Shown here: positions 2 to 11,411 of the stretch, one piece after another | Numbering within the stretch: position 1 is the stretch's first letter | Layout: each line of letters starts with the position of its first letter | NCBI GenBank assembly: GCA_963762145.1 | Contig: CAVXJS010000009.1 | Coordinates: forward strand, 288,001-352,000 | From: an uncultured Candidatus Rokubacteria bacterium | GTDB taxonomy: Bacteria > Methylomirabilota > Methylomirabilia > Rokubacteriales > CSP1-6 | DNA length: 64,000 bases | Direction: 5' to 3' | Notes under the pieces: generated by a model | Told to the model about the DNA's origin: nothing | What the model saw: the letters and a program-made list of their open reading frames with translations, nothing else | Database searches by the model: none | Translations under genes and position numbers: made by a program

Positions 2-130
2 GATACGTTCAGCTTCCAGGCCCCGGGCTTCTACGAGCGGCTCGGCTACTGGACCTATGCCCGCGCGGAGGACTGGCCGGTCGGCCATACCCATCACTTT
101 CTCAGGAAGGATCTGCTGCCCGCCCCGTGA
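2..130 (+). CDS. GNAT N-acetyltransferase, C-terminal fragment cut by the window edge
   Basis: Frame 2 reads DTFSFQAPGFYERLGY...HFLRKDL*, a typical GNAT C-terminus; its stop overlaps the next GTG. Confidence 0.75.
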   Translation, partial: DTFSFQAPGFYERLGYWTYARAEDWPVGHTHHFLRKDLLPAP

Positions 131-504
131 TCAAGCTCGTCTTCTGCCTCCGCCGCCTGCCCCACCTCTCCCGCGAAGAATTTCAGCGCTACTGGCTCGA
201 TTCCCACGGCCCGCTGGTCCGAGAGCTGGCCCCCGCGCTGGGCATCAAGCGCTACACCCAGGTGCACACCGTGACGTCCGCCTTCAGCGAGGCGATGCGC
301 CGCCACCGCGGCGCTCCCGACGACTTCGACGGCGTGGCCGAGCTCTGGTGGGACACGGTGGAGGAATTCGCCCGCATGGGCGCGACGCCCGAGGGCCGCG
401 CGGCGGGGCGGCGGCTGCTCGAGGATGAAAAACGTTTCATCGACCTCGCGCGCTCGCCGATCTGGTTCGGCGAGGAGCACTCGCTGCTCGATGGCACCAG
501 GTAA
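127..504 (+). CDS. EthD-family protein
   Basis: KLVFCLRR..LSREEFQRYW...HGPL and DFDGVAELWWD...DEKRFID motifs. Confidence 0.85.
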   Translation: MIKLVFCLRRLPHLSREEFQRYWLDSHGPLVRELAPALGIKRYTQVHTVTSAFSEAMRRHRGAPDDFDGVAELWWDTVEEFARMGATPEGRAAGRRLLEDEKRFIDLARSPIWFGEEHSLLDGTR

Positions 505-650
505 ATCCGTGAGGACCGCGTATCGCTTACACGGTAAGTTGTACCCGATGGCTCACCCGCCACGACAGCTAGTAGCCCCGCGTTTCACTGAAAACGCGTC
601 CGACGTGCATTTGATCGTCGCTATCCCTCCTGCCTCGGCGCGTCGCCGCG

Positions 651-666
651 TGGCACGCAACTTGTG
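651..666 (+). promoter_or_regulatory. sigma-54 (-24/-12) promoter for the PEP-CTERM gene
   Basis: TGGCAC-GCAAC-TTGTG versus consensus TGGCAC-N5-TTGC; about 170 nt upstream of ATG 836. Confidence 0.65.
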
Positions 667-835
667 TCCTACGAGCAACTCGATCGGGGGCAAGATCTTC
701 GAAACCTGAACAACTATGAAGCGTGACGTACGTAGTGTGCAGGGGAGTTCACATTTGATTCAAGTAGGTGGCAGCCGAACGGGTGGGTTGGGAAACGAGT
801 CATTGGGTTCCTCTTAGCGTGAAGGGATAAGGAGA

Positions 836-1762
836 ATGGAAATGCGCTCATATACTCGGTTCGGGGTTTTCCTCGCCGTGTTCGCCGCCGCCGTGCTCAC
901 CGGCGCCACCGTGATGGCCGCCCCGATCACATTGCCAACGAGCCCGCTGTTCATCCAGTACACCAACAATGAACAGTTCAGTATCAGCAATTCGATCCAA
1001 AGCACCAATGCCACAACGGGAGCCGTCACGAGTGAGGGCAACTGGGGCATTCTCCAGATCTCGAGCATCGTGAGAGGCACGGCCCTGAACCCGCTCGGCA
1101 GCGATATTCAGGGTGGCGGAGCTAACGTATTCAGCGACGGAGGAGTCGGCGGCCCGCAGATTACCGGTATCTTTTACGGGACACAGGTCAATCCAGGTGG
1201 CCTTAGCGCAACCGGTGGCGCTATTGACCTCTATTGGCGGGATGTCGGAACGGCGAACACCGGCGCTGACCTCGCCGCCGGCTTCGATCCCACGCGGCGT
1301 CTGAACCAGAGGACTTACACGGGCTATGCTGAGCCACTCAACGCGAATTTCATTTTTCTCGCGCAGCTCACGTATGGTCCCGGTTGCGATAGCAACCCCG
1401 CTAACCACGTCTGCACCGGCGTCGCCCCGGGAACTGGAGACGGAACCGCGAAGAGCTACCAGAGTGTCAACTTGGCGGCGGGCGGGCTTTGGGCGAGCCA
1501 GCTCGACAGCAACTTCTTCACTCTCGATGCCAACGGGAACCCGCAGACGACCCCGCAAGATGTCCGGTCAGACAGCAACTTCACCCGCAACGGAGCTTCA
1601 GCGTGGGATGGTGCCGGCGACATCATCGGCCTTCGCAGCAATGACCCGGTTCGTGTGGACAATCTCGAACCCGTTCCCGAACCCGGAACCCTGGGTCTTT
1701 TCGGATTGGCGATGGTCGGAGTGGGCTACATGCGCCGGCGCATGAACATGAAGAAGAAATAA
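836..1762 (+). CDS. PEP-CTERM sorting-domain surface protein
   Basis: N-terminal signal peptide, Gly/Ser/Thr/Asn-rich body, C-terminal VPEPGTLGLFGLAMVGVGYMRRR; RBS AAGGAG. Confidence 0.92.
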   Translation: MEMRSYTRFGVFLAVFAAAVLTGATVMAAPITLPTSPLFIQYTNNEQFSISNSIQSTNATTGAVTSEGNWGILQISSIVRGTALNPLGSDIQGGGANVFSDGGVGGPQITGIFYGTQVNPGGLSATGGAIDLYWRDVGTANTGADLAAGFDPTRRLNQRTYTGYAEPLNANFIFLAQLTYGPGCDSNPANHVCTGVAPGTGDGTAKSYQSVNLAAGGLWASQLDSNFFTLDANGNPQTTPQDVRSDSNFTRNGASAWDGAGDIIGLRSNDPVRVDNLEPVPEPGTLGLFGLAMVGVGYMRRRMNMKKK

Positions 1763-1792
1763 TCCGCGGCTCACAGTCTACGTGTTTCGGCG

Positions 1793-1822
1793 CAAAGGGG
1801 GCAACTGCCCCCTTTGTCGTTT
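1793..1822 (+). terminator. intrinsic terminator after the PEP-CTERM gene
   Basis: CAAAGGGGGCA-AC-TGCCCCCTTTG perfect hairpin followed by TCGTTT. Confidence 0.7.
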
Positions 1823-2099
1823 ACGGAGCCCGGTGGCCGTCTGAAGGATGCGGCGTCTGAACCGTCTCTACGGCTCGCGTCCGCATATTTCGCGGAGGCT
1901 GAGCTCGACCGCTGAGCCAAGTGATGGGAGAAGATCCGGGATCGCGCTCCCCACCGCCAGCCCGGGCGGTACGGCGGACGAGGCACTGTGCGAGCACATC
2001 GTTCGCAGGCCGTGGTACGGTGGCGCCCCTGATGACCGCTCCAGCCGGCTTGGCGGTTCTTGAGCGTAGCATTGCTATCCTCATACTGGTGTTCGACTC

Positions 2100-2759
2100 G
2101 TGACAGCCCAACGAATCCGCCTGGGACTGCAATTGCTCGGGACGATCGCGATTCTGGCGTGGGTACCCGGGAATGCGGCGAAACTCGTGGCAATGCTGGT
2201 GATCTGGGCACTTGGCTTCGGAAGATTATCCCGCTCCGATGTGGTGTTCATGATCGGTGTCAACCTGTTGTTCATCTGTATGAACCTTGGCGCCCTGCGC
2301 AAGGGAGCCTTCCGGTTCACCAGCCCCGACGCCCTGGGCATGCCCATGTATGAGTTCGCCATGTGGGGGTTCTATACCCTCCATACCATCCGCTTCCTTG
2401 ACGGGATGGCCCCTGGGGGGAGCCGATGGACGGCCTTGATCATGGCAGCTGCGCTTGCAGTTCCCTTCTCTATGGTTAGCGACCCGGGCGTCTTGACCCT
2501 GCTGTCGGGAATAGTCCTAGGCACCAGCCTCGCGTTGTACAGGGAGCCCATGGATTTTGCGTATGCCGCGTACATGGTCATGATGGGTACCTTGATCGAG
2601 TACGTCGGTGTGTGGACAGGGCAATGGAGCTACCCGGGCAATCCGCCGGGTGGGGTGCCGTCGTGGTTCATCCCCATGTGGGGAGGAGTCGGGTTATTCA
2701 CCCGCAGATTGCTTCTGCCCTTACTGCGCCAAGGCGCCGGATCACCGGTACCCGGCTGA
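2100..2759 (+). CDS. polytopic membrane protein with two internal repeats (DUF2878/lycopene-cyclase/CruF-like); candidate FeeH-like tailoring enzyme
   Basis: Hydrophobic 219 aa; repeats GAFRFTSPDALGMPMYEFAMWG and GQWSYPGNPPGGVPSWFIPMWG; lies 21 nt upstream of the flavo-oxidase. Confidence 0.6.
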   Translation: MTAQRIRLGLQLLGTIAILAWVPGNAAKLVAMLVIWALGFGRLSRSDVVFMIGVNLLFICMNLGALRKGAFRFTSPDALGMPMYEFAMWGFYTLHTIRFLDGMAPGGSRWTALIMAAALAVPFSMVSDPGVLTLLSGIVLGTSLALYREPMDFAYAAYMVMMGTLIEYVGVWTGQWSYPGNPPGGVPSWFIPMWGGVGLFTRRLLLPLLRQGAGSPVPG

Positions 2760-2780
2760 TGCGCGCCCGCCGTCGGGCTC

Positions 2781-4397
2781 GTGTCAGGAGGAATTCCGGT
2801 GGAGCTCCCTAGGGCCCTGCTGGATTGGAGCGCGCTTCTCGGCCAATCGCGTGTTCTCGATGCCGGGGCGGCACAAGCCGACTATGGGCGCTGTACCACC
2901 GGGATACGGCGCCGGCTTGCGGGGGCCCTGAGGCCGTGTGAACGCTCGCAGATCCCGCCGATCGTCGAGATCGCCGCCCGCTTCAAGGTCCCGCTCTATC
3001 CCATCAGCACCGGCCACAATTGGGGGTATGGAACGGCCTTGCCGCCTACGGACGACTGCATGATTCTGGATCTTTCCGGACTCGACCGGATTCTGGAATT
3101 CGACGCGGAAACCGGCCTGGTAACTGTCGAGCCGGGGGTCACGCAGCGGCAACTCGCCGAGTTCCTTGACCGTGGGGACCATCAATACCTGGTGCCGGTT
3201 ACCGGGGCGGGACCGACGTGCAGCATTGTCGGCAATGCCCTCGAGCGCGGCTATGGGATTACGCCCCAGGCTGACCACTTCGGCGCCGTGATGGCGCTCG
3301 AAGCGGTGTTACCGGATGGTCGTGTGTACCGCTCCGCCCTGTCCGAGCTCGATGGACAGCAGCTTGATCGTGCCTTCAAGTGGGGAATCGGCCCCTATCT
3401 GGACGGGATCTTTTCGCAGAGTGGCTTTGGCGTCGTGACGCAGATGACTATCGCTCTCTCCCGTCGTCCCGCTGCCATCAAGATCTTTCTCTTCGGTTTG
3501 AAGAGGTCAGAACAGCTCGGGAGCTTGGTGGAACGGGTGCGCGAGGTGATTGCCCGATTCCCCGGGATCGTCGGCGGCATCAACCTGATGAATGCGCATC
3601 GGGTGCTGGCCATGGCGGTGCCCTATCCCCGCGAGCGATTGGGTTCTGATGGTCTCATCTCTCCGGAACTGCTGGCCGAGCTCAGCCGCGAGAATCAGGT
3701 GATGCCCTGGACGGGCTTCGGCACTCTCTATGGCTCCAAGGGAGTGGTGAGAGCCGCGCAGCGTGAGGTACGCGATCTTTTGGGACCCCTGGTGTCTCGG
3801 CTGGTATTCATCAGCCCGGAGGGCGGACGGACATTGGCTCGAGCTGGAAGTATGTTGCCGAGCTATTTTCGTTCGAAGTTCGCCCGGAACCTGGAGATGC
3901 TCGAACGGTCCCTGCAGCTCGTAGCGGGGCGGCCGAATGAAACCGCTCTGCCCCTGTGCTACTGGAACACTCGCAAGCAACCTCGCGCGGGTGCCGCCAT
4001 GGATCCGGCCCGTGACGGCTGCGGCGTGGCATGGTATTCACCGCTCGTGCCCATGAAGCCGGACGGCGTTGCCGCCTACGTGCGAATGGTCACCGCCATC
4101 ATGCAAGAACATCGGCTGGAGCCGCTGATCACTTTGACCAGCCTGTCCGACAGGTGCTTTGACAGCACCGTGCCATTGCTGTTCGACCTGGATTCAGAGG
4201 AGAGCCGGAGGAATGCCGAGACCTGCTACTGGGCGCTCCTGGAGGCTGGGCGAGGTCAGGGCTTCCTTCCGTACCGGGTGGGCATTCAGACGATGAACTG
4301 GCTGTCCCAGAATGACGCGACGTTCTGGCAGGTTGTCCGGGAGATCAAGAAGACGCTGGATCCCCACGCGATCATCTCTCCGGGAAGGTACGTTTGA
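2781..4397 (+). CDS. FAD-linked oxidase, VAO/p-cresol methylhydroxylase (4-phenol oxidase) family; FeeG/CndG-like
   Basis: PISTGHNWGYG, VEPGVT, GNALERGYGITP.ADH, GPYLDGIFSQS.FGVVT, GFLPYR and C-terminal LDPHAIISPGRY motifs. Confidence 0.88.
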   Translation: MSGGIPVELPRALLDWSALLGQSRVLDAGAAQADYGRCTTGIRRRLAGALRPCERSQIPPIVEIAARFKVPLYPISTGHNWGYGTALPPTDDCMILDLSGLDRILEFDAETGLVTVEPGVTQRQLAEFLDRGDHQYLVPVTGAGPTCSIVGNALERGYGITPQADHFGAVMALEAVLPDGRVYRSALSELDGQQLDRAFKWGIGPYLDGIFSQSGFGVVTQMTIALSRRPAAIKIFLFGLKRSEQLGSLVERVREVIARFPGIVGGINLMNAHRVLAMAVPYPRERLGSDGLISPELLAELSRENQVMPWTGFGTLYGSKGVVRAAQREVRDLLGPLVSRLVFISPEGGRTLARAGSMLPSYFRSKFARNLEMLERSLQLVAGRPNETALPLCYWNTRKQPRAGAAMDPARDGCGVAWYSPLVPMKPDGVAAYVRMVTAIMQEHRLEPLITLTSLSDRCFDSTVPLLFDLDSEESRRNAETCYWALLEAGRGQGFLPYRVGIQTMNWLSQNDATFWQVVREIKKTLDPHAIISPGRYV

Positions 4398-4572
4398 TCT
4401 CAGCCGTCCCCGCGAGTCTCGCCAAGGGTGCGCCGGGCGCCCGCGGGCCAGGCGCCGACGACCCTGGAGGCCGTCGACGCCGAGGCCGGGCTGCCACGTC
4501 AGCTACGCCATGGCGAGACGCAGGGGGTTCCCTCGGTCGACAACGCGAGTGGGTGCGGAGCCTCCGACCCGC

Positions 4573-5436
4573 CTAGGGGTGGCAGCCGGCCAGAATGTAT
4601 GCCCGGTGGGCCTCGGAAGCCTCCGTCAATGCTTCGTGGCGCGAGAAGAAATACTCGACGCGCTCCTGCAGAGGAATGACCCGCCTCAAATCCTGGGCCA
4701 GCCGAGTCATCACCGCCTCGACGTTGGCAGGATGGAAGAGAAACTCATGGACTTCGCTGATCATGCGGCGACCATCGCGCAACTGGCTCATCAAAGACCG
4801 CGCGAGCGCAAGGTCGATCCTGAGGGCAATCGCGGGTGCACCATTGACCTTGCCGTACTGCTTCAGGCCGCCGATGTCCTGAAAGTGAAACGCCTTCCGA
4901 TAGAAGGGGGCGTGATGCGGATTGACGGCGATACAGAGATCGCTTTTCGTCTGGGCCGCATAGATGACCAGCATCCGGATCAATCGCAGGAGGATTGGGA
5001 CTCCTGATGACTGGTACTCAGGATCCATGGCCAGCGCCGAAACCTCCGCCAGATTACACCTCGCGTCCCGAAGCCTCCGGAGCTCATCCGTGTAGATCTC
5101 GTCCATCGGGAGACCGAGCGGAGAATCGGCGATGAGTGTCATCGTCCCTATGACGCGACCGCGGGACCGGGCTACAAACACGCGTGTTGCCGAGAGGGCA
5201 TTGTGAAGGCTCAGGCGCCAGCCGGACGGATGTGCATCCATGTAGCCGTGAGCCACGTATTGGTCGTGTTGTAGACGGAAGGCCTGCTCGAGGGTGCGAC
5301 GATCGGTGGCAAGACCGAAGTCGAGCTCATCTGCGAGCGGGTCGTTCTGGAACCAGACAGCTTTGAGCCGTGAGCGGCTCGTGGTCGGCGATGAAACAGT
5401 CTCCGCGTGCAGGGTCTGAACCGGCGATGCCGACAT
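4573..5436 (-). CDS. FeeM-like N-acyl amino acid synthase (GNAT fold; PEP-CTERM-associated acyltransferase type)
   Basis: AFRLQHDQYVAHGY, IGTMTLIADSPLGLPMDEIY, LAEVSALA, LCIAVNPHHAPFY, VNGAPA motifs; RBS GGAGGG before ATG 5436. Confidence 0.85.
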   Translation of the reverse strand: MSASPVQTLHAETVSSPTTSRSRLKAVWFQNDPLADELDFGLATDRRTLEQAFRLQHDQYVAHGYMDAHPSGWRLSLHNALSATRVFVARSRGRVIGTMTLIADSPLGLPMDEIYTDELRRLRDARCNLAEVSALAMDPEYQSSGVPILLRLIRMLVIYAAQTKSDLCIAVNPHHAPFYRKAFHFQDIGGLKQYGKVNGAPAIALRIDLALARSLMSQLRDGRRMISEVHEFLFHPANVEAVMTRLAQDLRRVIPLQERVEYFFSRHEALTEASEAHRAYILAGCHP

Positions 5437-5594
5437 CACGTGTCCCTCCCTCGCTGGATGGCCTGCTCTCCGTGGGCGGGACACGCCCTCTTCGGCAGCC
5501 GCGCTCAGGTCCTTTTGGTTCCTGACCTCTGGCTTTACATGCCGGCCTCGCGACCGGTTTGCCTTTATCGGAAGAAGGCTTTTACGGTTCTAGC

Positions 5595-5610
5595 AGCGAA
5601 ACCTGTGCCA
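5595..5610 (-). promoter_or_regulatory. sigma-54 promoter for the FeeM-like gene
   Basis: Minus strand reads TGGCAC-AGGTT-TCGCT. Confidence 0.65.
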
Positions 5611-6046
5611 CTCGATCTGTCGCAGACGACATTGCTTATGTTCCTAAAACCTAAGGGAATAGGCGTCCCTTGCATCGACGGACCAAATTCCAGGCGTCAG
5701 ATTCCTGACAGGCAACCTTCATTTGGTGACACTCGTGTGACATCACTCGACAAATGGCGTTAGGATTTGCGCGACGAACGTTTCAGGCTTTCGAACTCTT
5801 CTGCACGGGCCGCACAAACTCTGCGCGGGGACATCTCCAAGCTGCGTAGATGTCGTAAGACTCTTCGACGTGGCAGAAAGGGCTACGAGAGATTGATTCC
5901 GGTCGAATATTTGCTGTCATTTCTCGGAGACATTTACGGCATCAGCGTGGTCTGAGCAAGTCCTTTCTGGAGGAGGCAGGGCGGACCGCAAGGCCTAGCG
6001 CCTCAACGCGCGACGATGTCGCAGCTAGCCATAGCGGATTCTACCC

Positions 6047-6212
6047 ATGAAGCGGCCGATTGCTGGTTGGCCGCTTGCCCTTCGGCGGGCTCGGGTCACT
6101 GGCTCCGGAGCCGGCCACCCTGCTGCTGCTCGGTAGCTCCTTTGCCACCCTCGGCGTGGCTCTGCGCCGCCACCTGGCCGCGCGGAAGGCCGAGGCGGGC
6201 TACCGCGGGTAG
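6047..6212 (+). CDS. miniature PEP-CTERM peptide (TTG start at 6060, or ATG 6047 with a frameshift)
   Basis: Frame from 6060 reads LLVGRLPFGGLGSLAPEPATLLLLGSSFATLGVALRRHLAARK...*; absent from the ORF track because it is short. Confidence 0.7.
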
Positions 6213-8095
6213 CCCAGCGCCTTCAGCGAATCGCTGATCTCACCGAGGATCGCGGGGTCGTCGATGGTGGCGGGCACGGTGTGCTCGACGCCATCGGCGA
6301 TCTTCTTCATCGTCCCGCGCAGGATCTTGCCCGAGCGAGTCTTCGGCAGCCGCTTGACCACCGCCACCGTCTTGAACGCGGCGACCGGCCCGATCTTCTC
6401 GCGTACCAGCTCGACGAGCTCGCGGCAGAGGTCGGCCTCGGCGCGCTCCACGCCGGCCTTGGTGACGACCAGGCCCACCGGCACCTCGCCCTTGATCTCG
6501 TCGGCCACGCCCATGACCGCGCACTCGGCCACGTCCGGGTGCGCGGCGAGCACCTCCTCCATCGCGCCGGTGGAGAGCCGGTGTCCGGCCACGTTGATGA
6601 TGTCGTCCACGCGGCTCATGATGTAGATGTACTCGTCCTCGTCCTTGTAGCCCGCGTCGCCGGTGAGGTAGTAGCCCGGATGCCGCGTGAGGTACGAGCG
6701 CTCGAAGCCCTCGTCGTTGTGCCAGAGAGTGGGCAGACTGCTGGGCGGCATCGGCAGCTTCACCGCGATGGAGCCGATCTGGCCCGCCGGCACCTCGCGG
6801 TTGTCCTCCCCCAGCACGCGGATGTCGTAGCCCGGCACGACCTTGGTCGGGGAGCCCGGCTTGACCGGCAGCATGCCGAGCCCCACGCAGTTGGCCGCCA
6901 TCGGCCAGCCGGTCTCGGTCTGCCACCAGTGGTCCACCACCGGCACCTGGAGCTTCTCGCGCGCCCAGAGCAGGGTGTCGGGATCGCAGCGCTCGCCGGC
7001 CAGGAACAGCGTGCGGAAGCGCGAGAGATCGTACTTGCCGATGTGGGCGCCCTGCGGGTCCTCTTTCTTGATCGCGCGGAACGCGGTGGGCGCGGTGAAC
7101 AGCGCGCTCACTCCGTGCTGGGCGGAGACCCGCCAGAATGCGCCCGGATCGGGCGTGCCCACCGGCTTGCCCTCGTAGAGAATCGTGGTGCAGCCCTTGA
7201 GGAGCGGCGCGTAGACGATGTAGGAGTGGCCGACCACCCAGCCGATGTCCGAGGCCGCCCAGAAGGTCTCGCCCGCGCCCATGCCGTAGACCGCGTCCAT
7301 GCTCCACTTGAGCGCGACCGCGTGGCCGCCGTTGTCGCGTACCACGCCCTTGGGAATGCCGGTGGTCCCGGAGGTGTACAGGATGTAGAGCGGATCCGTG
7401 GCGGCCACCGGCACGCACTCGACCGGGGAGGCCGCCGCGACCGCCTCGCCCCAGTCCACGTCGCGGCCCGGCACGAGCGAGGCCGGCTCCATCGGGCGCT
7501 GCAGGATCACGCAGCGCGAGGGCTTGTGCGAGGCCATCGCGATGGCCTGGTCTAGCAGCGGCTTGTAGGGAATGACCCGGGTGCCCTCGATGCCGCACGA
7601 GGCCGAGAGCATCACCTTGGGCTTGGCGTCGTCGATGCGGGTGGCCAGCTCCTTGGGGGCGAAGCCGCCGAACACCACCGAGTGGATCGCCCCGATGCGC
7701 GCGCACGCGAGCATCGCCATCACCGCTTCGGGCACCGCCGGCATGTAGATGATGACCCGGTCGCCCTTCTCCACGCCCAGCCGTCGCAGGGCCCCCGCGA
7801 AGCGCGCGACCGCGTCGCGGAGCTCGAAGTAGGTGTAGGCGCGGACGATCCCGGTCACCGGGGAGTCGTAGATGAGCGCGGTCTGCTTGCCGCGGCCGCG
7901 GTCCACGTGGAGATCGAGCGCGTTGTAGCAGGTGTTCAGGACGCCGCCCGGGAACCAGCGGTAGTACGGCGGCCGCGAGGCGTCGAGCACCCGGTCCCAG
8001 CGCTTCTCCCAGTGGATGTCCTCGGCGCGCGCGGCCCAGAAGCCCTCCGGGTCATCGTGCGCGCGCCGGTACACCTCGTCGTAGATGGTCGCCAT
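6200..8095 (-). CDS. prpE: propionyl-CoA synthetase
   Basis: MATIYDEVY start; YILYTSGTTGIPKGVVRDNGGHAVAL, DHWWQTETGW, LPKTRSGKILR motifs. Confidence 0.88.
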   Translation of the reverse strand: MATIYDEVYRRAHDDPEGFWAARAEDIHWEKRWDRVLDASRPPYYRWFPGGVLNTCYNALDLHVDRGRGKQTALIYDSPVTGIVRAYTYFELRDAVARFAGALRRLGVEKGDRVIIYMPAVPEAVMAMLACARIGAIHSVVFGGFAPKELATRIDDAKPKVMLSASCGIEGTRVIPYKPLLDQAIAMASHKPSRCVILQRPMEPASLVPGRDVDWGEAVAAASPVECVPVAATDPLYILYTSGTTGIPKGVVRDNGGHAVALKWSMDAVYGMGAGETFWAASDIGWVVGHSYIVYAPLLKGCTTILYEGKPVGTPDPGAFWRVSAQHGVSALFTAPTAFRAIKKEDPQGAHIGKYDLSRFRTLFLAGERCDPDTLLWAREKLQVPVVDHWWQTETGWPMAANCVGLGMLPVKPGSPTKVVPGYDIRVLGEDNREVPAGQIGSIAVKLPMPPSSLPTLWHNDEGFERSYLTRHPGYYLTGDAGYKDEDEYIYIMSRVDDIINVAGHRLSTGAMEEVLAAHPDVAECAVMGVADEIKGEVPVGLVVTKAGVERAEADLCRELVELVREKIGPVAAFKTVAVVKRLPKTRSGKILRGTMKKIADGVEHTVPATIDDPAILGEISDSLKALGYPR

Positions 8096-8183
8096 GGATC
8101 GCCGCCTCCCTGGCCCCGGACTGTACAACGCGTCGCCCCGCCTTGCCAGGCCCCGGGCCGGCCGCCTATCATGCGGGCAGCTC

Positions 8184-8977
8184 ATGCGCCCGCGCCTCCG
8201 CGTCCTCGGCGTCCTGCTCCTGGCGGCCATCCACTCCGCGACCGCCGCGCGGGCCGCCGACGAGGAGGTCCGAACGATCCCGACGCGGCCGGGCGTCACC
8301 GAGTCGTTCCTCCTCCTGCGCCCGGCCGGCGCCCCGGTGGCCAGCGTGATCATCTTCGCGGGGGGCGACGGCAACCTCGCGATGACCGCCACCGGCATCG
8401 CCCAGCTGCAGGGCAACTTCCTCGTGCGGACCCGGATGCGCTGGGTCCGCGAGGGTTCCTGGTCGCGGTGCTGGACCGGCCCTCGGACCGGAAGAACGGG
8501 CTCTGGAACTTCCGCACCACGGCCGAGCACGCGGGGGACGTCAAGCAGGCCATCGCGGCGATGCGCGAGATCGCGCCGGTGCCGGTATGGCTCGTGGGCA
8601 CCAGCATGGGCTCGCTCTCCGCGGCCAACGCGGCGGCGCGCCTCCCCGAGGGCGGGCCCGACGGGATCGTGCTCACCTCCTCGGTCACCGAGACCTCGAA
8701 GATGAGCTACGAGACGACCCGGCACGCCGGGCTCGGCGAGATTCGCGTCCCCACCCTGGTGGTGCACCACAAGGACGACACGTGCCGGGCCTCGTCCTAC
8801 TCGGGCGCGGAGGACATCGTCAAGGCGCTCAAGCAGGCGCCGGTCAAGGAGCTGATCGCCTTCGAGGGCGGGAGCCCGGCCATCTCGGCGCCGTGCGAGG
8901 CGAAGGCGGCCCACGGCTACCTCGGCATCGAGGCGACGGTGGTCTCCGCCATCGGCGCCTGGATTCGCGCCCACTGA
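8184..8977 (+). CDS. exported alpha/beta hydrolase (frameshift near 8455)
   Basis: Signal peptide; GNFLVR joins FLVAVLD in the next frame; GTSMG nucleophile elbow; HGYLG. Confidence 0.8.
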
Positions 8978-9015
8978 CGGGAGCCGCACCCCGGGCCGCG
9001 GCCGCCTGGCGCGGG

Positions 9016-10395
9016 CTAGACGGTCGCGGAGGCCGACGGGGTCTGGCGCGTGCGGCGGATGCGCGCCTGGACGTCGCGCACCCGGTCCTGCTCGAAGTCG
9101 ATCTGCACCTCGTGGTGCTCGATCTCCCAGTGCTTCACGGTGGCGAACCAGCCGAAGCGCCGGCCGCGGTGGGGCACCAGGAGCTCACCGCGATAGATCA
9201 CCGCCCGGATCTCGCCGGTGGGCAGGCGCTGCTCCTCCTCGGGGGCGCTGCCCACCAGCCGGAGCACGTCCTCGTAGGTGCTCTCTCCGGGCCGGATGCG
9301 CGCGAGCACCTCCTGCGACGGCACCTCTCCGCGGGTGCGCCCGACGGCCTCCCCGCGCCCGAAATGGACCCGCTGGCGCACGGTCCGGACGAGCTTGCGG
9401 AGCAGATTGCCCACGATCGGGCCGGTGAGATTGCCCAGCCCCAGCAGCAGGGCGGAGAGCAGGATGGGCCGCCAGGGCAGCCGTCCCCGGAAGTACACGA
9501 ACTGCACCCTCAGCACCTGCGGCACGATGCCGTCCGCCGCGACGAGGGGAATCGAGAACGTGTCCGTGTTCTCCCGGGTCTCGCTCAGCCGGCGGAGCGC
9601 GGTGGACGGGACCACCTCGTCGATCTTCAGGTGGTTCGCCTCCGCGAAGTTGATCATGAGGCGGGAGAAGTCGGCCGCGAGCGGGATGACCCGGTCGCGG
9701 TTGCCGTAGTAGAGCGGGTACAGCGATGAATAGCCGACGTCGCCGAAGCTCAGCGTGATGATGTTGCGCCGGCCCCAGAACGCCTCCTCCAGCCAGCTGA
9801 CCTTTCGCGGGGTGATGGCGCCCTTGGCCGCGAGATCGAGCCGTGGGACCCAGTCGAGGCTCGCCAGCTCGGGCTTCCACGGGATCCGGATGTAGGTCAC
9901 GGGCTTCGCGCCGCGCGCGAGCCCCTCCGGCCGCGCGAAGGTGACGAAGAAGGCGCTCCCGAGGTCGAGCCGGCCGGCGGCGCCCGCGCCGGTGCCCATC
10001 TGGAGCCGGTTCCGGGCCGAGAACGGGACCCGGCCGTGCACCAGCACCTTGAACCCGGCGGTCTCCACCTGCTGTCTCAGCGCGGGATCGGCGCCGTCGA
10101 CGCCGTCGGTCCCGACCAGCTCGCCCGGCCAGAGGAGGAAGATGTCCTGGGCGAACTCGGCCGGGTCGCGCGCCGGCGGCGGCGCCACGCTGAACGACAC
10201 CTGGATCGTGACCGGGCCGGGACGATCCTCGACGTGCTTGCGCTCGACGTTCGCGGTGATGAGGACCGGCGCGATCCAGAACTCGGGATGGGGCTTGGAC
10301 GCGATGAAGACCTGCGCGGACGCGATGGGGGGGCCCAGGCCCAGGACGAGGAGAGCGACCGGGACCGCGCGCGCCAGGCGCCCGCGCCGCTTCAC
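9016..10395 (-). CDS. hypothetical membrane-anchored protein with C-terminal SmpA/BamE-like segment
   Basis: GTG start overlapping the upstream stop; signal peptide, one TM helix, IRPGESTYEDVLRLVG. Confidence 0.6.
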   Translation of the reverse strand: MKRRGRLARAVPVALLVLGLGPPIASAQVFIASKPHPEFWIAPVLITANVERKHVEDRPGPVTIQVSFSVAPPPARDPAEFAQDIFLLWPGELVGTDGVDGADPALRQQVETAGFKVLVHGRVPFSARNRLQMGTGAGAAGRLDLGSAFFVTFARPEGLARGAKPVTYIRIPWKPELASLDWVPRLDLAAKGAITPRKVSWLEEAFWGRRNIITLSFGDVGYSSLYPLYYGNRDRVIPLAADFSRLMINFAEANHLKIDEVVPSTALRRLSETRENTDTFSIPLVAADGIVPQVLRVQFVYFRGRLPWRPILLSALLLGLGNLTGPIVGNLLRKLVRTVRQRVHFGRGEAVGRTRGEVPSQEVLARIRPGESTYEDVLRLVGSAPEEEQRLPTGEIRAVIYRGELLVPHRGRRFGWFATVKHWEIEHHEVQIDFEQDRVRDVQARIRRTRQTPSASATV

Positions 10396-11411
10396 CGGGT
10401 GGGATCCTCCCCCACCCGCACCAGCAGCTTGCCGAAGTTCTTGCCCTGGAGCAGGCCGATGAAGGCCTCGGGCGCCTTCTCGAGGCCGACCACGACGTCC
10501 TCGCGATGCTTGAGGCGGCCCTCGCGCAGCCAGCCGCCGCAGTCCTTCAGGAAATCGGGCAGCCGGGCCAGGTGGTCCGACACGATGAAGCCTTTCACGA
10601 GCACGCGGTTGAAGAGCAGCGGCCGCAGGTTGGGGCCCGGCGTCGATTCGGTCGCGTTGTACTCGGAGATGAGCCCGCAGAGCGGGATGCGCGCGTTCAG
10701 GTTCAGCAGCTGCATCACCGCCCGCAGCACGTCGCCGCCCACGTTCTCGAAGTACACGTCGATTCCGCCCGGGCAGGCGGCCTTGAGCGACGCGGCCAGA
10801 TCGCCCGTCTTGTAGTTCACGCACGCGTCGAAGCCCAGCTCGCGCACCACGTAGTCGCACTTGTCCTGGGATCCCGCGATGCCCACCGCGCGCGCGCCCT
10901 TGATCTTCGCGATCTGCCCCACCGCGGAGCCGACCGCCCCCGAGGCCGCCGAGACCACCACCGTCTCGCCGGGCCGGGGCTGGCCGATGTCGAGCAGGCC
11001 CACGTAGGCGGTCATGCCGGGCATGCCGAGCACGCCCAGCGCGGTGGAGACCGGCGCCTGCCCGGGATCGAGCTTGCGGACCGCCGCGCCCTTGGCCACC
11101 GCGTGGGACTGCCAGCCGTCGTAGGCCAGCACGATGTCGCCCTTCGCGAGCCCCGGGTGCTTCGACTCGAGCACCTCGCCGACGGTCGCGCCCACGATCA
11201 CCTGCCCGAGCTCCACCGACTGGGCGTACGACTTGACGCCGCTGATGCGGCCGCGCATGTACGGATCGAGCGAGAGATAGATGGTCCGGCTCAGGATCTC
11301 GCCGTCCTTCGGCGCCGGGAGCGGCGACTCGACGAGCCCGAAGTCGCCGGGCTTGGGCATGCCGACGGGCCGGGTGCGCAGCACGATCTGGCGATTGACG
11401 GATGGGGGCAT
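10392..11411 (-). CDS. NADP-dependent alkenal/double-bond reductase (CurA/PTGR family, MDR)
   Basis: YLSLDPYMRG, LGMPGMTAY, VSAASGAVG, YFENVGG, GKNFGK motifs. Confidence 0.9.
   Translation of the reverse strand: MPPSVNRQIVLRTRPVGMPKPGDFGLVESPLPAPKDGEILSRTIYLSLDPYMRGRISGVKSYAQSVELGQVIVGATVGEVLESKHPGLAKGDIVLAYDGWQSHAVAKGAAVRKLDPGQAPVSTALGVLGMPGMTAYVGLLDIGQPRPGETVVVSAASGAVGSAVGQIAKIKGARAVGIAGSQDKCDYVVRELGFDACVNYKTGDLAASLKAACPGGIDVYFENVGGDVLRAVMQLLNLNARIPLCGLISEYNATESTPGPNLRPLLFNRVLVKGFIVSDHLARLPDFLKDCGGWLREGRLKHREDVVVGLEKAPEAFIGLLQGKNFGKLLVRVGEDPTR

Follow-up and report, generated by a model that had tools for sequence, protein, structure and literature searches.

A horizontally acquired PEP-CTERM-associated gene island and its putative N-acyl-tyrosine lipid pathway in a Candidatus Rokubacteria genome

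Described systems and the gene content of the island

Synthases of N-acyl amino acids have been known to travel with PEP-CTERM/exosortase systems since 2006-2011, and Craig, Cherry and Brady reportedly described such PEP-CTERM/exosortase-associated synthases in 2011; we know of no account of why they do so, or of what exosortase substrates attach to. Here we analyse a locus in 64,000 nucleotides (nt) of an uncultured Candidatus Rokubacteria bacterium (assembly GCA_963762145.1, contig CAVXJS010000009.1, positions 288,001 to 352,000), below called the window. The locus is an island of about 5.5 kb with genes for a PEP-CTERM protein, a membrane protein, a VAO/PCMH-family flavoenzyme (also called the oxidase) and a FeeM-like acyltransferase, and it had earlier been interpreted from its letters and open reading frames (ORFs) by a model, whose note is referred to as the original prediction. 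Coordinates are positions in the window, and L and G codes denote surveyed loci and genomes.

Floc formation by bacteria of the kind that carry the PEP-CTERM protein PepA underlies activated-sludge water treatment. PepA drives flocculation by binding exopolysaccharide (EPS) to cells (PMC9850573), and in Methylomonas LW13 knockout of an exosortase-system synthase of N-acyl amino acids abolished a polysaccharide band (PMC11072679). According to PMC11350588, the 4-phenol subgroup of the VAO/PCMH family includes the flavoenzymes FeeG and CndG, which decarboxylate N-substituted tyrosines via a quinone methide, in agreement with the original prediction, which had described FeeG as an oxidative decarboxylase of N-acyl-tyrosyl substrates. 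Both the link of the synthase to PEP-CTERM systems and the FeeG/CndG chemistry are thus already known. Neither the four-gene module nor an Insig-fold partner, both described below, was found in print by full-text searches, whose scope did not extend to Craig 2011 and the bioRxiv supplements, where a figure may show the module.

With moderate confidence we read the locus as a horizontally acquired copy of a recurrent PEP-CTERM/exosortase module that would make and handle an oxidised N-acyl-tyrosine lipid, gated by cyclic di-GMP (c-di-GMP). The island is foreign and was horizontally acquired, and its four-gene set recurs, in many cases within exosortase/EPS loci. By analogy, its putative product is best read as a lipid derived from N-acyl-tyrosine. 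The features of the locus are as follows (aa, amino acids; GC3, GC content at third codon positions):

127-504, plus strand: EthD-family gene, host flank and left island border (PF07110, 81.2 bits)
505-6050: foreign low-GC island of about 5.5 kb, borders approximate (GC profile, GC3, oxidase in 0 of 30 relatives)
651-666, plus strand: degenerate sigma-54-like site (TGGCACGCAACTTGTG; 170 nt upstream of the PEP-CTERM gene)
836-1762, plus strand: PepA-like PEP-CTERM protein, 308 aa (PF07589, 28.7 bits)
2100-2759, plus strand: membrane protein with a predicted Insig fold, 219 aa (structure match 4XU4, Z 16.6)
2781-4397, plus strand: 4-phenol-type VAO/PCMH flavoenzyme, 538 aa (FAD_binding_4, 79.1 bits)
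4573-5484, minus strand: FeeM-family N-acyl amino acid synthase, convergent (PF21926, 154.7 bits)
5490-5573, minus strand: predicted c-di-GMP-I riboswitch aptamer, 5' leader of the FeeM-like gene (RF01051, 43.4 bits)
5595-5610, minus strand: sigma-54-type -24/-12 site (TGGCAC-N5-TCGCT, 22 nt upstream of the aptamer)
6051-6212, plus strand: 3' remnant of a resident host PEP-CTERM gene, outside the island (17 of 23 residues match a G012 protein)
6200-8095, minus strand: Acs-like acyl-CoA synthetase gene, host flank on the right (named by eye; GC3 0.96)

ORF calling found four intact ORFs between the EthD-family and Acs-like genes, and these are the PEP-CTERM gene, the membrane protein, the flavoenzyme and the convergent FeeM-like acyltransferase of the original prediction. 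The GC profile drops to 0.54-0.66 over approximately 500-6000, compared to 0.69-0.74 in the flanks, and GC3 is 0.72-0.75 in the four island genes versus 0.90 in the EthD gene and 0.96 in the Acs-like gene, which bears out both the claimed excess of A/T-ending codons and the compositionally foreign character of these genes. As had also been stated, the island contains no acyl carrier protein (ACP) or fatty acid synthase genes of its own. The oxidase was found in none of the 30 relatives examined, 18 of which belong to the same genus. In a tree obtained by a quick search and rooted at the midpoint it groups with Nitrosomonas and Rhodocyclaceae sequences (support 95), inside a largely betaproteobacterial clade, and the closest relative of the FeeM-type protein comes from a Binatia locus (50% identity).

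The insertion site could be reconstructed from same-genus genomes. In these the EthD-family protein is 86-91% identical and its gene directly adjoins either a resident PEP-CTERM gene or the Acs-like gene, the product of which is 89-96% identical in seven same-genus loci. The DNA match of the right flank begins mostly at 6199-6204, and at about 6101 in G012. Between the island and this flank lies a 50-aa ORF (6060-6212), regarded in the original prediction as a second, miniature PEP-CTERM member of the cassette. It scores 20.3 bits for PEP-CTERM, against a Pfam gathering cut-off of 20.7, has a stop codon directly upstream of its open frame and a host-like GC3 of 0.88, and shares 17 of 23 residues with the C-terminal end of a 218-aa PEP-CTERM protein encoded at the same position in G012. 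This ORF is what remains of a resident PEP-CTERM gene, the 5' part of which gave way to the island; it is therefore not a member of the cassette, and the cassette is not bracketed by PEP-CTERM genes of its own. No tRNA was found at the island borders. A search for repeats on its two sides, direct or inverted, gave no convincing candidates; the best two are 72% alike and lie within host-type sequence.

The EthD/Acs-like spot is variable within the genus: it is empty in G001, occupied by a resident PEP-CTERM gene in G011 and by the 5.5-kb island here, and G003 and G012 also have a PEP-CTERM gene beside the Acs-like gene. The resident PEP-CTERM genes encode about 200-220 aa and are only 42-76% identical to one another in the loci compared (L091, L093, L094 and L097). 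Elsewhere in the genome, a second very short frame with a PEP-CTERM match (60 aa, 27.2 bits; G000:C19:385738-385815(+)) is possibly a gene stump as well.

L009 contains the membrane-protein and oxidase genes in a copy that is 96% identical, with the similarity ending at window position 4493. On the 3' side of the oxidase, L009 carries a 343-aa serine-recombinase-like ORF (L009:3741-4772(+); weak CcrB match, 29.5 bits) in place of the riboswitch and the FeeM gene, so the cassette is a mosaic; with such a recombinase-like neighbour, the module may be mobile as a cassette. The 175 nt between the stop codons of the convergent oxidase and FeeM-like genes (4398-4572) are the likely recombination joint of this mosaic, since they hold the point, approximately 4493, at which the L009 similarity ends. 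The GC content of this spacer is 0.76, above that of either gene. L009 and L010, the two closest copies of the module, are contigs of 3-5 kb binned into Propionibacteriaceae and Gemmatimonadales metagenome-assembled genomes (MAGs); these labels are mutually inconsistent and therefore probably binning errors that do not reveal the true hosts.

Recurrence of the gene set and properties of its products

A scan of species-representative genomes yielded 192 stretches with oxidase relatives, the best 80 of which (46-96% identity) were kept; ORFs were called in these loci and clustered, and hidden Markov models were built. At least 5 kb flank the oxidase on both sides in 51 of the 80, and counts for this subset are given in brackets. 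In 30 loci (23) the oxidase has a FeeM-type gene at a distance of up to 5 kb; this is a lower bound, as FeeM-type genes more than 5 kb away in large EPS loci were left uncounted. An Insig-fold gene occurs within the same distance in 26 loci (19) and a PepA-like gene (at least 85 bits) in 24 (18), while any PEP-CTERM ORF is found within 2.5 kb in 56 (39). All three partners accompany the oxidase in 15 of the 80 loci (13), from several phyla. The claimed combination of enzymes with PEP-CTERM genes is thus a recurrent one, and the trio does co-occur elsewhere.

Going by record titles, complete modules were found in Massilia (3), Pelomonas and Roseateles, as well as in MAGs assigned to Rhodocyclaceae, Burkholderiales, Alphaproteobacteria (5), Binatia, Acidobacteriota and Geobacter. 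No partner was detected in 15 loci, five of which have less than 1.1 kb, and three more less than 5 kb, on one side of the oxidase. The gene order varies; in Massilia it is oxidase, PepA-like and Insig-fold genes, followed by FeeM on the opposite strand. Other recurring neighbours encode Poly_export, Wzz/GNVR and AAA_22 proteins, a ParA-like ATPase, an epimerase, a trypsin-like protease and a 927-aa tetratricopeptide repeat (TPR) protein, and such neighbours characterise the exosortase-type EPS locus of Haft et al. (PMC1569441). The words oxidase, oxidoreductase and FAD are absent from that paper, and oxidase and oxidoreductase from PMC9850573. In L046 the module is followed by a 1162-aa ORF (7440-10928(-)) that resembles, by eye, a TPR-repeat lipoprotein of the PrsT kind.

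The flavoenzyme was originally predicted to be a VAO/PCMH-family oxidase, and this is borne out by its FAD-binding domain (PF01565, 79.1 bits against 26.4) and by its 33 best solved relatives, all of which are 4-phenol enzymes or unnamed close kin. The closest are nsVAO (2.5e-64) and VAD (1.4e-57), followed by PCMH, eugenol oxidase (EUGO) and VAO. The Tyr of a GYG motif (Y83) and the pair Y498-R499 stand opposite identical residues in nsVAO and VAD and do not vary among 26 members; we take them from the alignment as the phenolate-binding triad, presumably equivalent to Tyr108, Tyr503 and Arg504 of VAO. V416 aligns with H387 of VAD, the histidine of covalent FAD attachment, and the enzyme thus appears to lack the residues for a covalent flavin, as judged on the VAD-type histidine and not on the PCMH-type tyrosine. 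V140-T141 follow a conserved Val-Pro, at the place where oxidases have Asp/Glu-Leu, and are tentatively the likely pair in contact with N5, with two alignments disagreeing on this loop. The identities of nsVAO and VAD were taken from PMC7617285, in which the clade name 'OxD' occurs in a figure legend only; FeeG and CndG are not mentioned in PMC11148156.

Relatives of the flavoenzyme are publicly labelled 'FAD-binding oxidoreductase' or '4-cresol dehydrogenase', and the 120 best homologues have generic names only. Of 8000 scored candidates, 2954 reach E <= 1e-10. The association described here suggests that the label '4-cresol dehydrogenase' is a mis-annotation in thousands of proteins.

The acyltransferase matches PF21926 with 154.7 bits (gathering cut-off 27) through residues 67-224, which cover the entire profile (1-158 of 158), and the FeeM structure 2G0B with an E-value of 5.8e-17 (residues 70-240 on chain residues 23-196), in accordance with its first description as FeeM-like. 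It has 303 aa when read from GTG 5484; GTG 5439 or ATG 5436, behind GGAGGG, is probably the likelier start. Two kinds of FeeM-type neighbours occur in the surveyed loci, namely the exosortase-linked TIGR03694 type and the FeeM-proper type. The window enzyme matches the N-terminal part of PRK14852, i.e. the FeeM-proper type, and TIGR03694 members take part in the module at L016, L023, L060 and L075 (193-270 bits).

The 219-aa ORF at 2100-2759 encodes a membrane protein, as had been stated, for which searches of profile libraries gave no family match. An AlphaFold model built from 26 homologues (pLDDT 93.1) was compared with 48,161 solved chains. The best match was the mycobacterial Insig homologue MvINS (4XU4; Z 16.6, root-mean-square deviation 3.0 Å over 176 of 189 residues), then human Insig (6M49; Z 11.5), and the next score was 5.0. 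According to this model the protein has the lipid-binding Insig fold, which spans residues 40-216. D77, E85, D152, E167 and R203 are invariant in the 26 sequences, and we read the conserved Asp, Glu and Arg as lying in membrane helices. Diacylglycerol is the lipid bound in MvINS. Insig binds 25-hydroxycholesterol, as the title of entry 6M49 states. Faint sequence matches among the 26 members lead to DUF817 (7 of 26) and DUF2878 (2 of 26), the members being feature-level neighbours of both families, while neither the window protein nor any of the 26 members matches Pfam INSIG (PF07281) at E <= 1. Profile and structure searches detected no enzyme family. The three-enzyme pathway of the original prediction, with its analogy to FeeH, is therefore unsupported, as the membrane protein is not recognisably an enzyme. 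Full-text literature searches found no relevant publication on FeeH and none on Insig-like proteins in exosortase loci. Prediction of a complex between the oxidase and its Insig-fold neighbour scored 0.00 in both runs, which were made without controls and weigh on neither side as to binding.

The fourth product, of 308 aa, carries an N-terminal signal peptide recognised by eye and a PEP-CTERM domain at residues 279-302 (PF07589, 28.7 bits; gathering cut-off 20.7), as expected from the original prediction. Residues 13-303 align with positions 5-260 of 261 of the floc PepA model NF033554, but at 28.3 bits, i.e. below the cut-off of 80, so the protein is PepA-like and not a PepA equivalog. Among seven PEP-CTERM matches above cut-off in the genome, that of the island is the best.

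Promoters, riboswitch and activity

Two sigma-54-type -24/-12 motifs had been claimed, at 651 and 5595. The latter (TGGCACAGGTTTCGCT, 5595-5610(-)) has GG at -24, GC at -12 and canonical spacing, with one mismatch to TGGCAC-N5-TTGCW. Five such matches occur in the window against 0.93 expected, and none of 100 shuffles reaches five. The site at 651 is weaker than claimed: it reads TGGCACGCAACTTGTG, with GT in place of GC at -12, and is not among the matches with at most one mismatch in the window scan. It has TGGCACGCA in common with the sites of three relatives. Upstream of the PepA-like genes of relatives, TGGCAY-N7-GCW or GGYAY-N5-YTGC was found in 14 of 23 cases, and a -24/-12 motif upstream of FeeM-type genes in 3 of 43. 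The genome encodes rpoN (449.9 bits against 277) and has about 20 matches to NtrC-type activators. Scans for sigma-70 promoters and terminators gave counts near the shuffle expectation.

In the intergenic region 1763-2099, 60 nt (1868-1927) are 88% conserved in L009, unlike the surrounding spacer, and may act as a terminator or as some small regulatory element. This stretch overlaps a sub-threshold Rfam match to the ALIL pseudoknot (1882-1932; 26.7 bits, gathering cut-off 50), which was taken as chance.

Between the promoter at 5595 and the synthase gene lies a predicted c-di-GMP-I riboswitch (5490-5573(-)), which the original prediction had overlooked. It matches the full RF01051 model (1-87) with 43.4 bits, above the gathering cut-off of 35, and scores 49 bits (E 7.9e-11) on the related c-di-GMP-I-GGC model RF03167, for which the cut-off is 59. 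At the position of a conserved G in the RF03167 consensus (ACGCGAAG) the window aptamer has A, in a column that we take to be that of the intercalating adenine of canonical aptamers; the corresponding stretch of L046 reads, by eye, ACGCAAAG. The end of the window aptamer is at 5490 and the candidate starts of the synthase (5484, 5439/5436) follow on the same strand, which places it in a sense 5' leader. As the -24/-12 site ends 22 nt upstream of the aptamer, the order of the leader is promoter, aptamer, ribosome-binding site, gene. In the predicted fold the ribosome-binding site pairs with GUGUCCC just after the aptamer.

The genome holds three such aptamers, one of them in the window. The other two (G000:C15:12016-12098(+) in L003 and G000:C9:225570-225647(+) in L004; RF01051, 71.4 and 70.5 bits) precede small ORFs with lipoprotein- or signal-peptide-like N-termini and no obvious family. 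A covariance model made from these three aptamers was run over the 80 oxidase loci and gave matches beyond this genome in L046 and L075, in each case directly before a FeeM-type gene; both were confirmed by Rfam. In L046, a Binatia MAG, the aptamer (RF03167, 66.2 bits) is preceded at about 20 nt by TGGTAC-N5-TTGCT, a layout like that of the window. In L075, a Geobacter MAG, the aptamer (RF01051, 38.7 bits) stands before a TIGR03694 acyltransferase gene, and a strong hairpin (-28.1 kcal/mol, z -4.6), with seven U behind it, has its 5' arm in common with the 3' strand of the aptamer. This overlap of predicted terminator and aptamer is the arrangement expected of an ON switch. Full-text literature searches found no report of a c-di-GMP riboswitch before a synthase of N-acyl amino acids.

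Several observations suggest that the island genes are likely still functional. Compared with close copies, the ratio of nonsynonymous to synonymous substitution rates (dN/dS) is 0.20-0.39, with 0.20 for the oxidase against its 96%-identical copy. Soil metagenomes from 14 studies contain the stretch, and contigs from four soil RNA libraries (four studies), which are 90-99% alike, match portions of each of the four genes, leaving 1807-2007 and most of 5626-6228 uncovered; these contigs give neither strand nor level, and DNA carry-over is possible. One of them corresponds to 5183-5589, thus including the whole aptamer and ending a few bases downstream of the -12 element.

Readings of the locus and comparison with described systems

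Our interpretation of the locus is as follows. The FeeM-family synthase would acylate an amino acid, most likely tyrosine, with acyl-ACP drawn from host fatty-acid synthesis. The 4-phenol flavoenzyme would then abstract a hydride at the tyrosyl group's benzylic carbon, leading to a p-quinone methide, which could yield either an enamide by decarboxylation, as with FeeG and CndG, or an N-acyl-dehydrotyrosine by deprotonation, as in the stieleriacines. The Insig-fold protein might bind or present the lipid in the membrane, and the PepA-like PEP-CTERM protein might be a matrix or floc protein that acts together with it. The synthase would be expressed from the sigma-54-type promoter and gated by the c-di-GMP-I riboswitch, and such gating would tie lipid synthesis to the second messenger of the sessile/motile decision.

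Several observations weigh against this interpretation. The assembly, which is 88% complete and 5.4% contaminated, has no exosortase match (PF09721 or TIGR04178), and its best candidates for PrsR (440.5 bits, cut-off 502.6) and PrsK (104 bits, cut-off 300) stay below threshold, so that the check proposed in the original prediction found none of these proteins in this incomplete assembly. The promoter at 651 is degenerate at -12, and the cassette is, as mentioned above, a mosaic. The window synthase has no TIGR03694 match at E <= 0.01 (cut-off 111.95 bits), and tyrosine is no more than the likeliest candidate for its amino-acid substrate. The kinship of the flavoenzyme with FeeG and CndG is putative and follows from their published description, and its best solved relatives are of the catabolic type. 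The riboswitch was seen in only 2 of the 80 loci, with a model of three sequences, and the sequence does not tell ON from OFF, as the ribosome-binding site is predicted to be paired with or without the aptamer fold. Finally, a PEP-CTERM neighbour (56 of 80) is commoner than a FeeM-type one (30 of 80), and the substrate of the oxidase need therefore not be the FeeM product.

The last point makes oxidation of the matrix itself the main rival explanation. In this case the flavoenzyme would act on the PEP-CTERM protein or another matrix component, converting tyrosyl or phenolic groups to quinone methides that cross-link, and the acyltransferase would be only loosely linked. Apart from the greater frequency of PEP-CTERM ORFs within 2.5 kb than of FeeM-type genes within 5 kb, this would account for the Insig-fold gene being accompanied by a PepA-like gene in 21 of 26 loci, and for L009, which keeps the membrane-protein and oxidase genes without FeeM. 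However, the count of 30 for FeeM-type genes is a lower bound, and action on proteins is not known to us for any 4-phenol VAO/PCMH enzyme. The characterised tyrosyl precedents use N-acyl-tyrosyl small molecules (PMC11350588). We consider matrix oxidation rather unlikely.

It is also unlikely, in our opinion, that the island is a decaying passenger, which was acquired but no longer works as a PEP-CTERM system. Such a state would fit the failure to find an exosortase, PrsR or PrsK above cut-off, the patchy distribution of exosortase in the genus (8 of 20 genomes), the GT at -12 of the site at 651 and the destruction of a resident PEP-CTERM gene by the insertion. On the other hand, the four ORFs are intact, with dN/dS of 0.20-0.39 and coverage by RNA-library contigs, the assembly is just 88% complete, and the genome has sigma-54, NtrC-type activator matches and seven PEP-CTERM matches above cut-off.

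It is highly improbable that we are dealing with a catabolic dehydrogenase of the usual kind, acting on p-cresol or 4-alkylphenols, with coincidental neighbours. In its favour, relatives of the flavoenzyme bear the name '4-cresol dehydrogenase (hydroxylating) flavoprotein subunit', nsVAO/VAD, PCMH and EUGO are its best solved relatives, and the likely N5-contacting Val-Thr pair lacks the acid-plus-Leu typical of oxidases. Against it, the genes that recur nearby encode PEP-CTERM, EPS-export, Insig-fold and FeeM-type proteins, aromatic-catabolic or cytochrome c genes occur in 0 of 23 recurrent neighbour clusters scanned, and the covalent-FAD histidine of VAD is replaced by Val.

The N-acyl-tyrosine lipid interpretation can be carried one step further, to a speculation that we regard as a long shot: the module could be the missing lipid partner of exosortase-type matrix proteins, with a c-di-GMP-controlled, electrophilic quinone methide or enamide lipid that is held in the membrane by the Insig-fold protein and coupled, covalently or tightly, to the PepA-like protein or to polysaccharide. 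If this were true, the coupling would anchor the floc matrix to the cell and give a reason for the co-occurrence of N-acyl amino acid synthases with exosortase systems. The question is testable in culture, as carriers include Massilia, Roseateles, Pelomonas and Nitrosomonas eutropha. With this locus, a gene for lipid synthesis would also join those controlled by c-di-GMP riboswitches, and the locus places a bacterial protein with a predicted Insig fold in a defined genetic context.

Among described systems, the PepA system of Aquincola and Zoogloea (RpoN-dependent and floc-forming; PMC9850573) is alike in the size of the protein, its signal peptide and PEP-CTERM. A -24/-12 promoter is also found upstream of relatives of the window protein (14 of 23), and a prsT-like TPR gene near the oxidase in 16 surveyed loci, whereas the window itself has a degenerate -12 element and no prsT, PrsK or PrsR evident nearby. 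With Insig and MvINS the membrane protein shares the predicted helical membrane fold, but it is only about 12% identical, has one or two extra N-terminal helices and stands in a different genomic setting. Like known c-di-GMP-I (GEMM-I) riboswitches, the window aptamer scores above the Rfam gathering cut-off and lies in a 5' leader.

The exosortase-associated synthases (TIGR03694) are likewise FeeM-superfamily acyltransferases found among PEP-CTERM and EPS genes, whereas the window enzyme is of the FeeM-proper type. The stieleriacine cluster of Stieleria maiorica (PMC7293339) makes N-acyl-tyrosine-derived lipids (dehydrotyrosines) and comprises several N-acyl amino acid synthase genes, with a PEP-CTERM gene, an adjacent 'putative oxidoreductase' and EPS genes alongside; the likeness of this oxidoreductase is by description, as Mal15_37310 is listed in the supplement only as 'hypothetical protein'. 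Its methyltransferase, desaturase and TcdA-like genes have no counterpart in the island. The same chemistry as that proposed here, i.e. a quinone methide formed on an N-acyl-tyrosyl substrate, is expected of the fee cluster of soil environmental DNA (FeeM and FeeG), CndG of chondrochloren and HyeB of hyellamide, the last of which belongs to a cluster that uses an SGNH-type acyltransferase. In contrast to these systems, the module of the window adds an Insig-fold protein and a PepA-like PEP-CTERM protein in exosortase/EPS loci, and in the window and two MAGs a predicted c-di-GMP-I riboswitch precedes the synthase.

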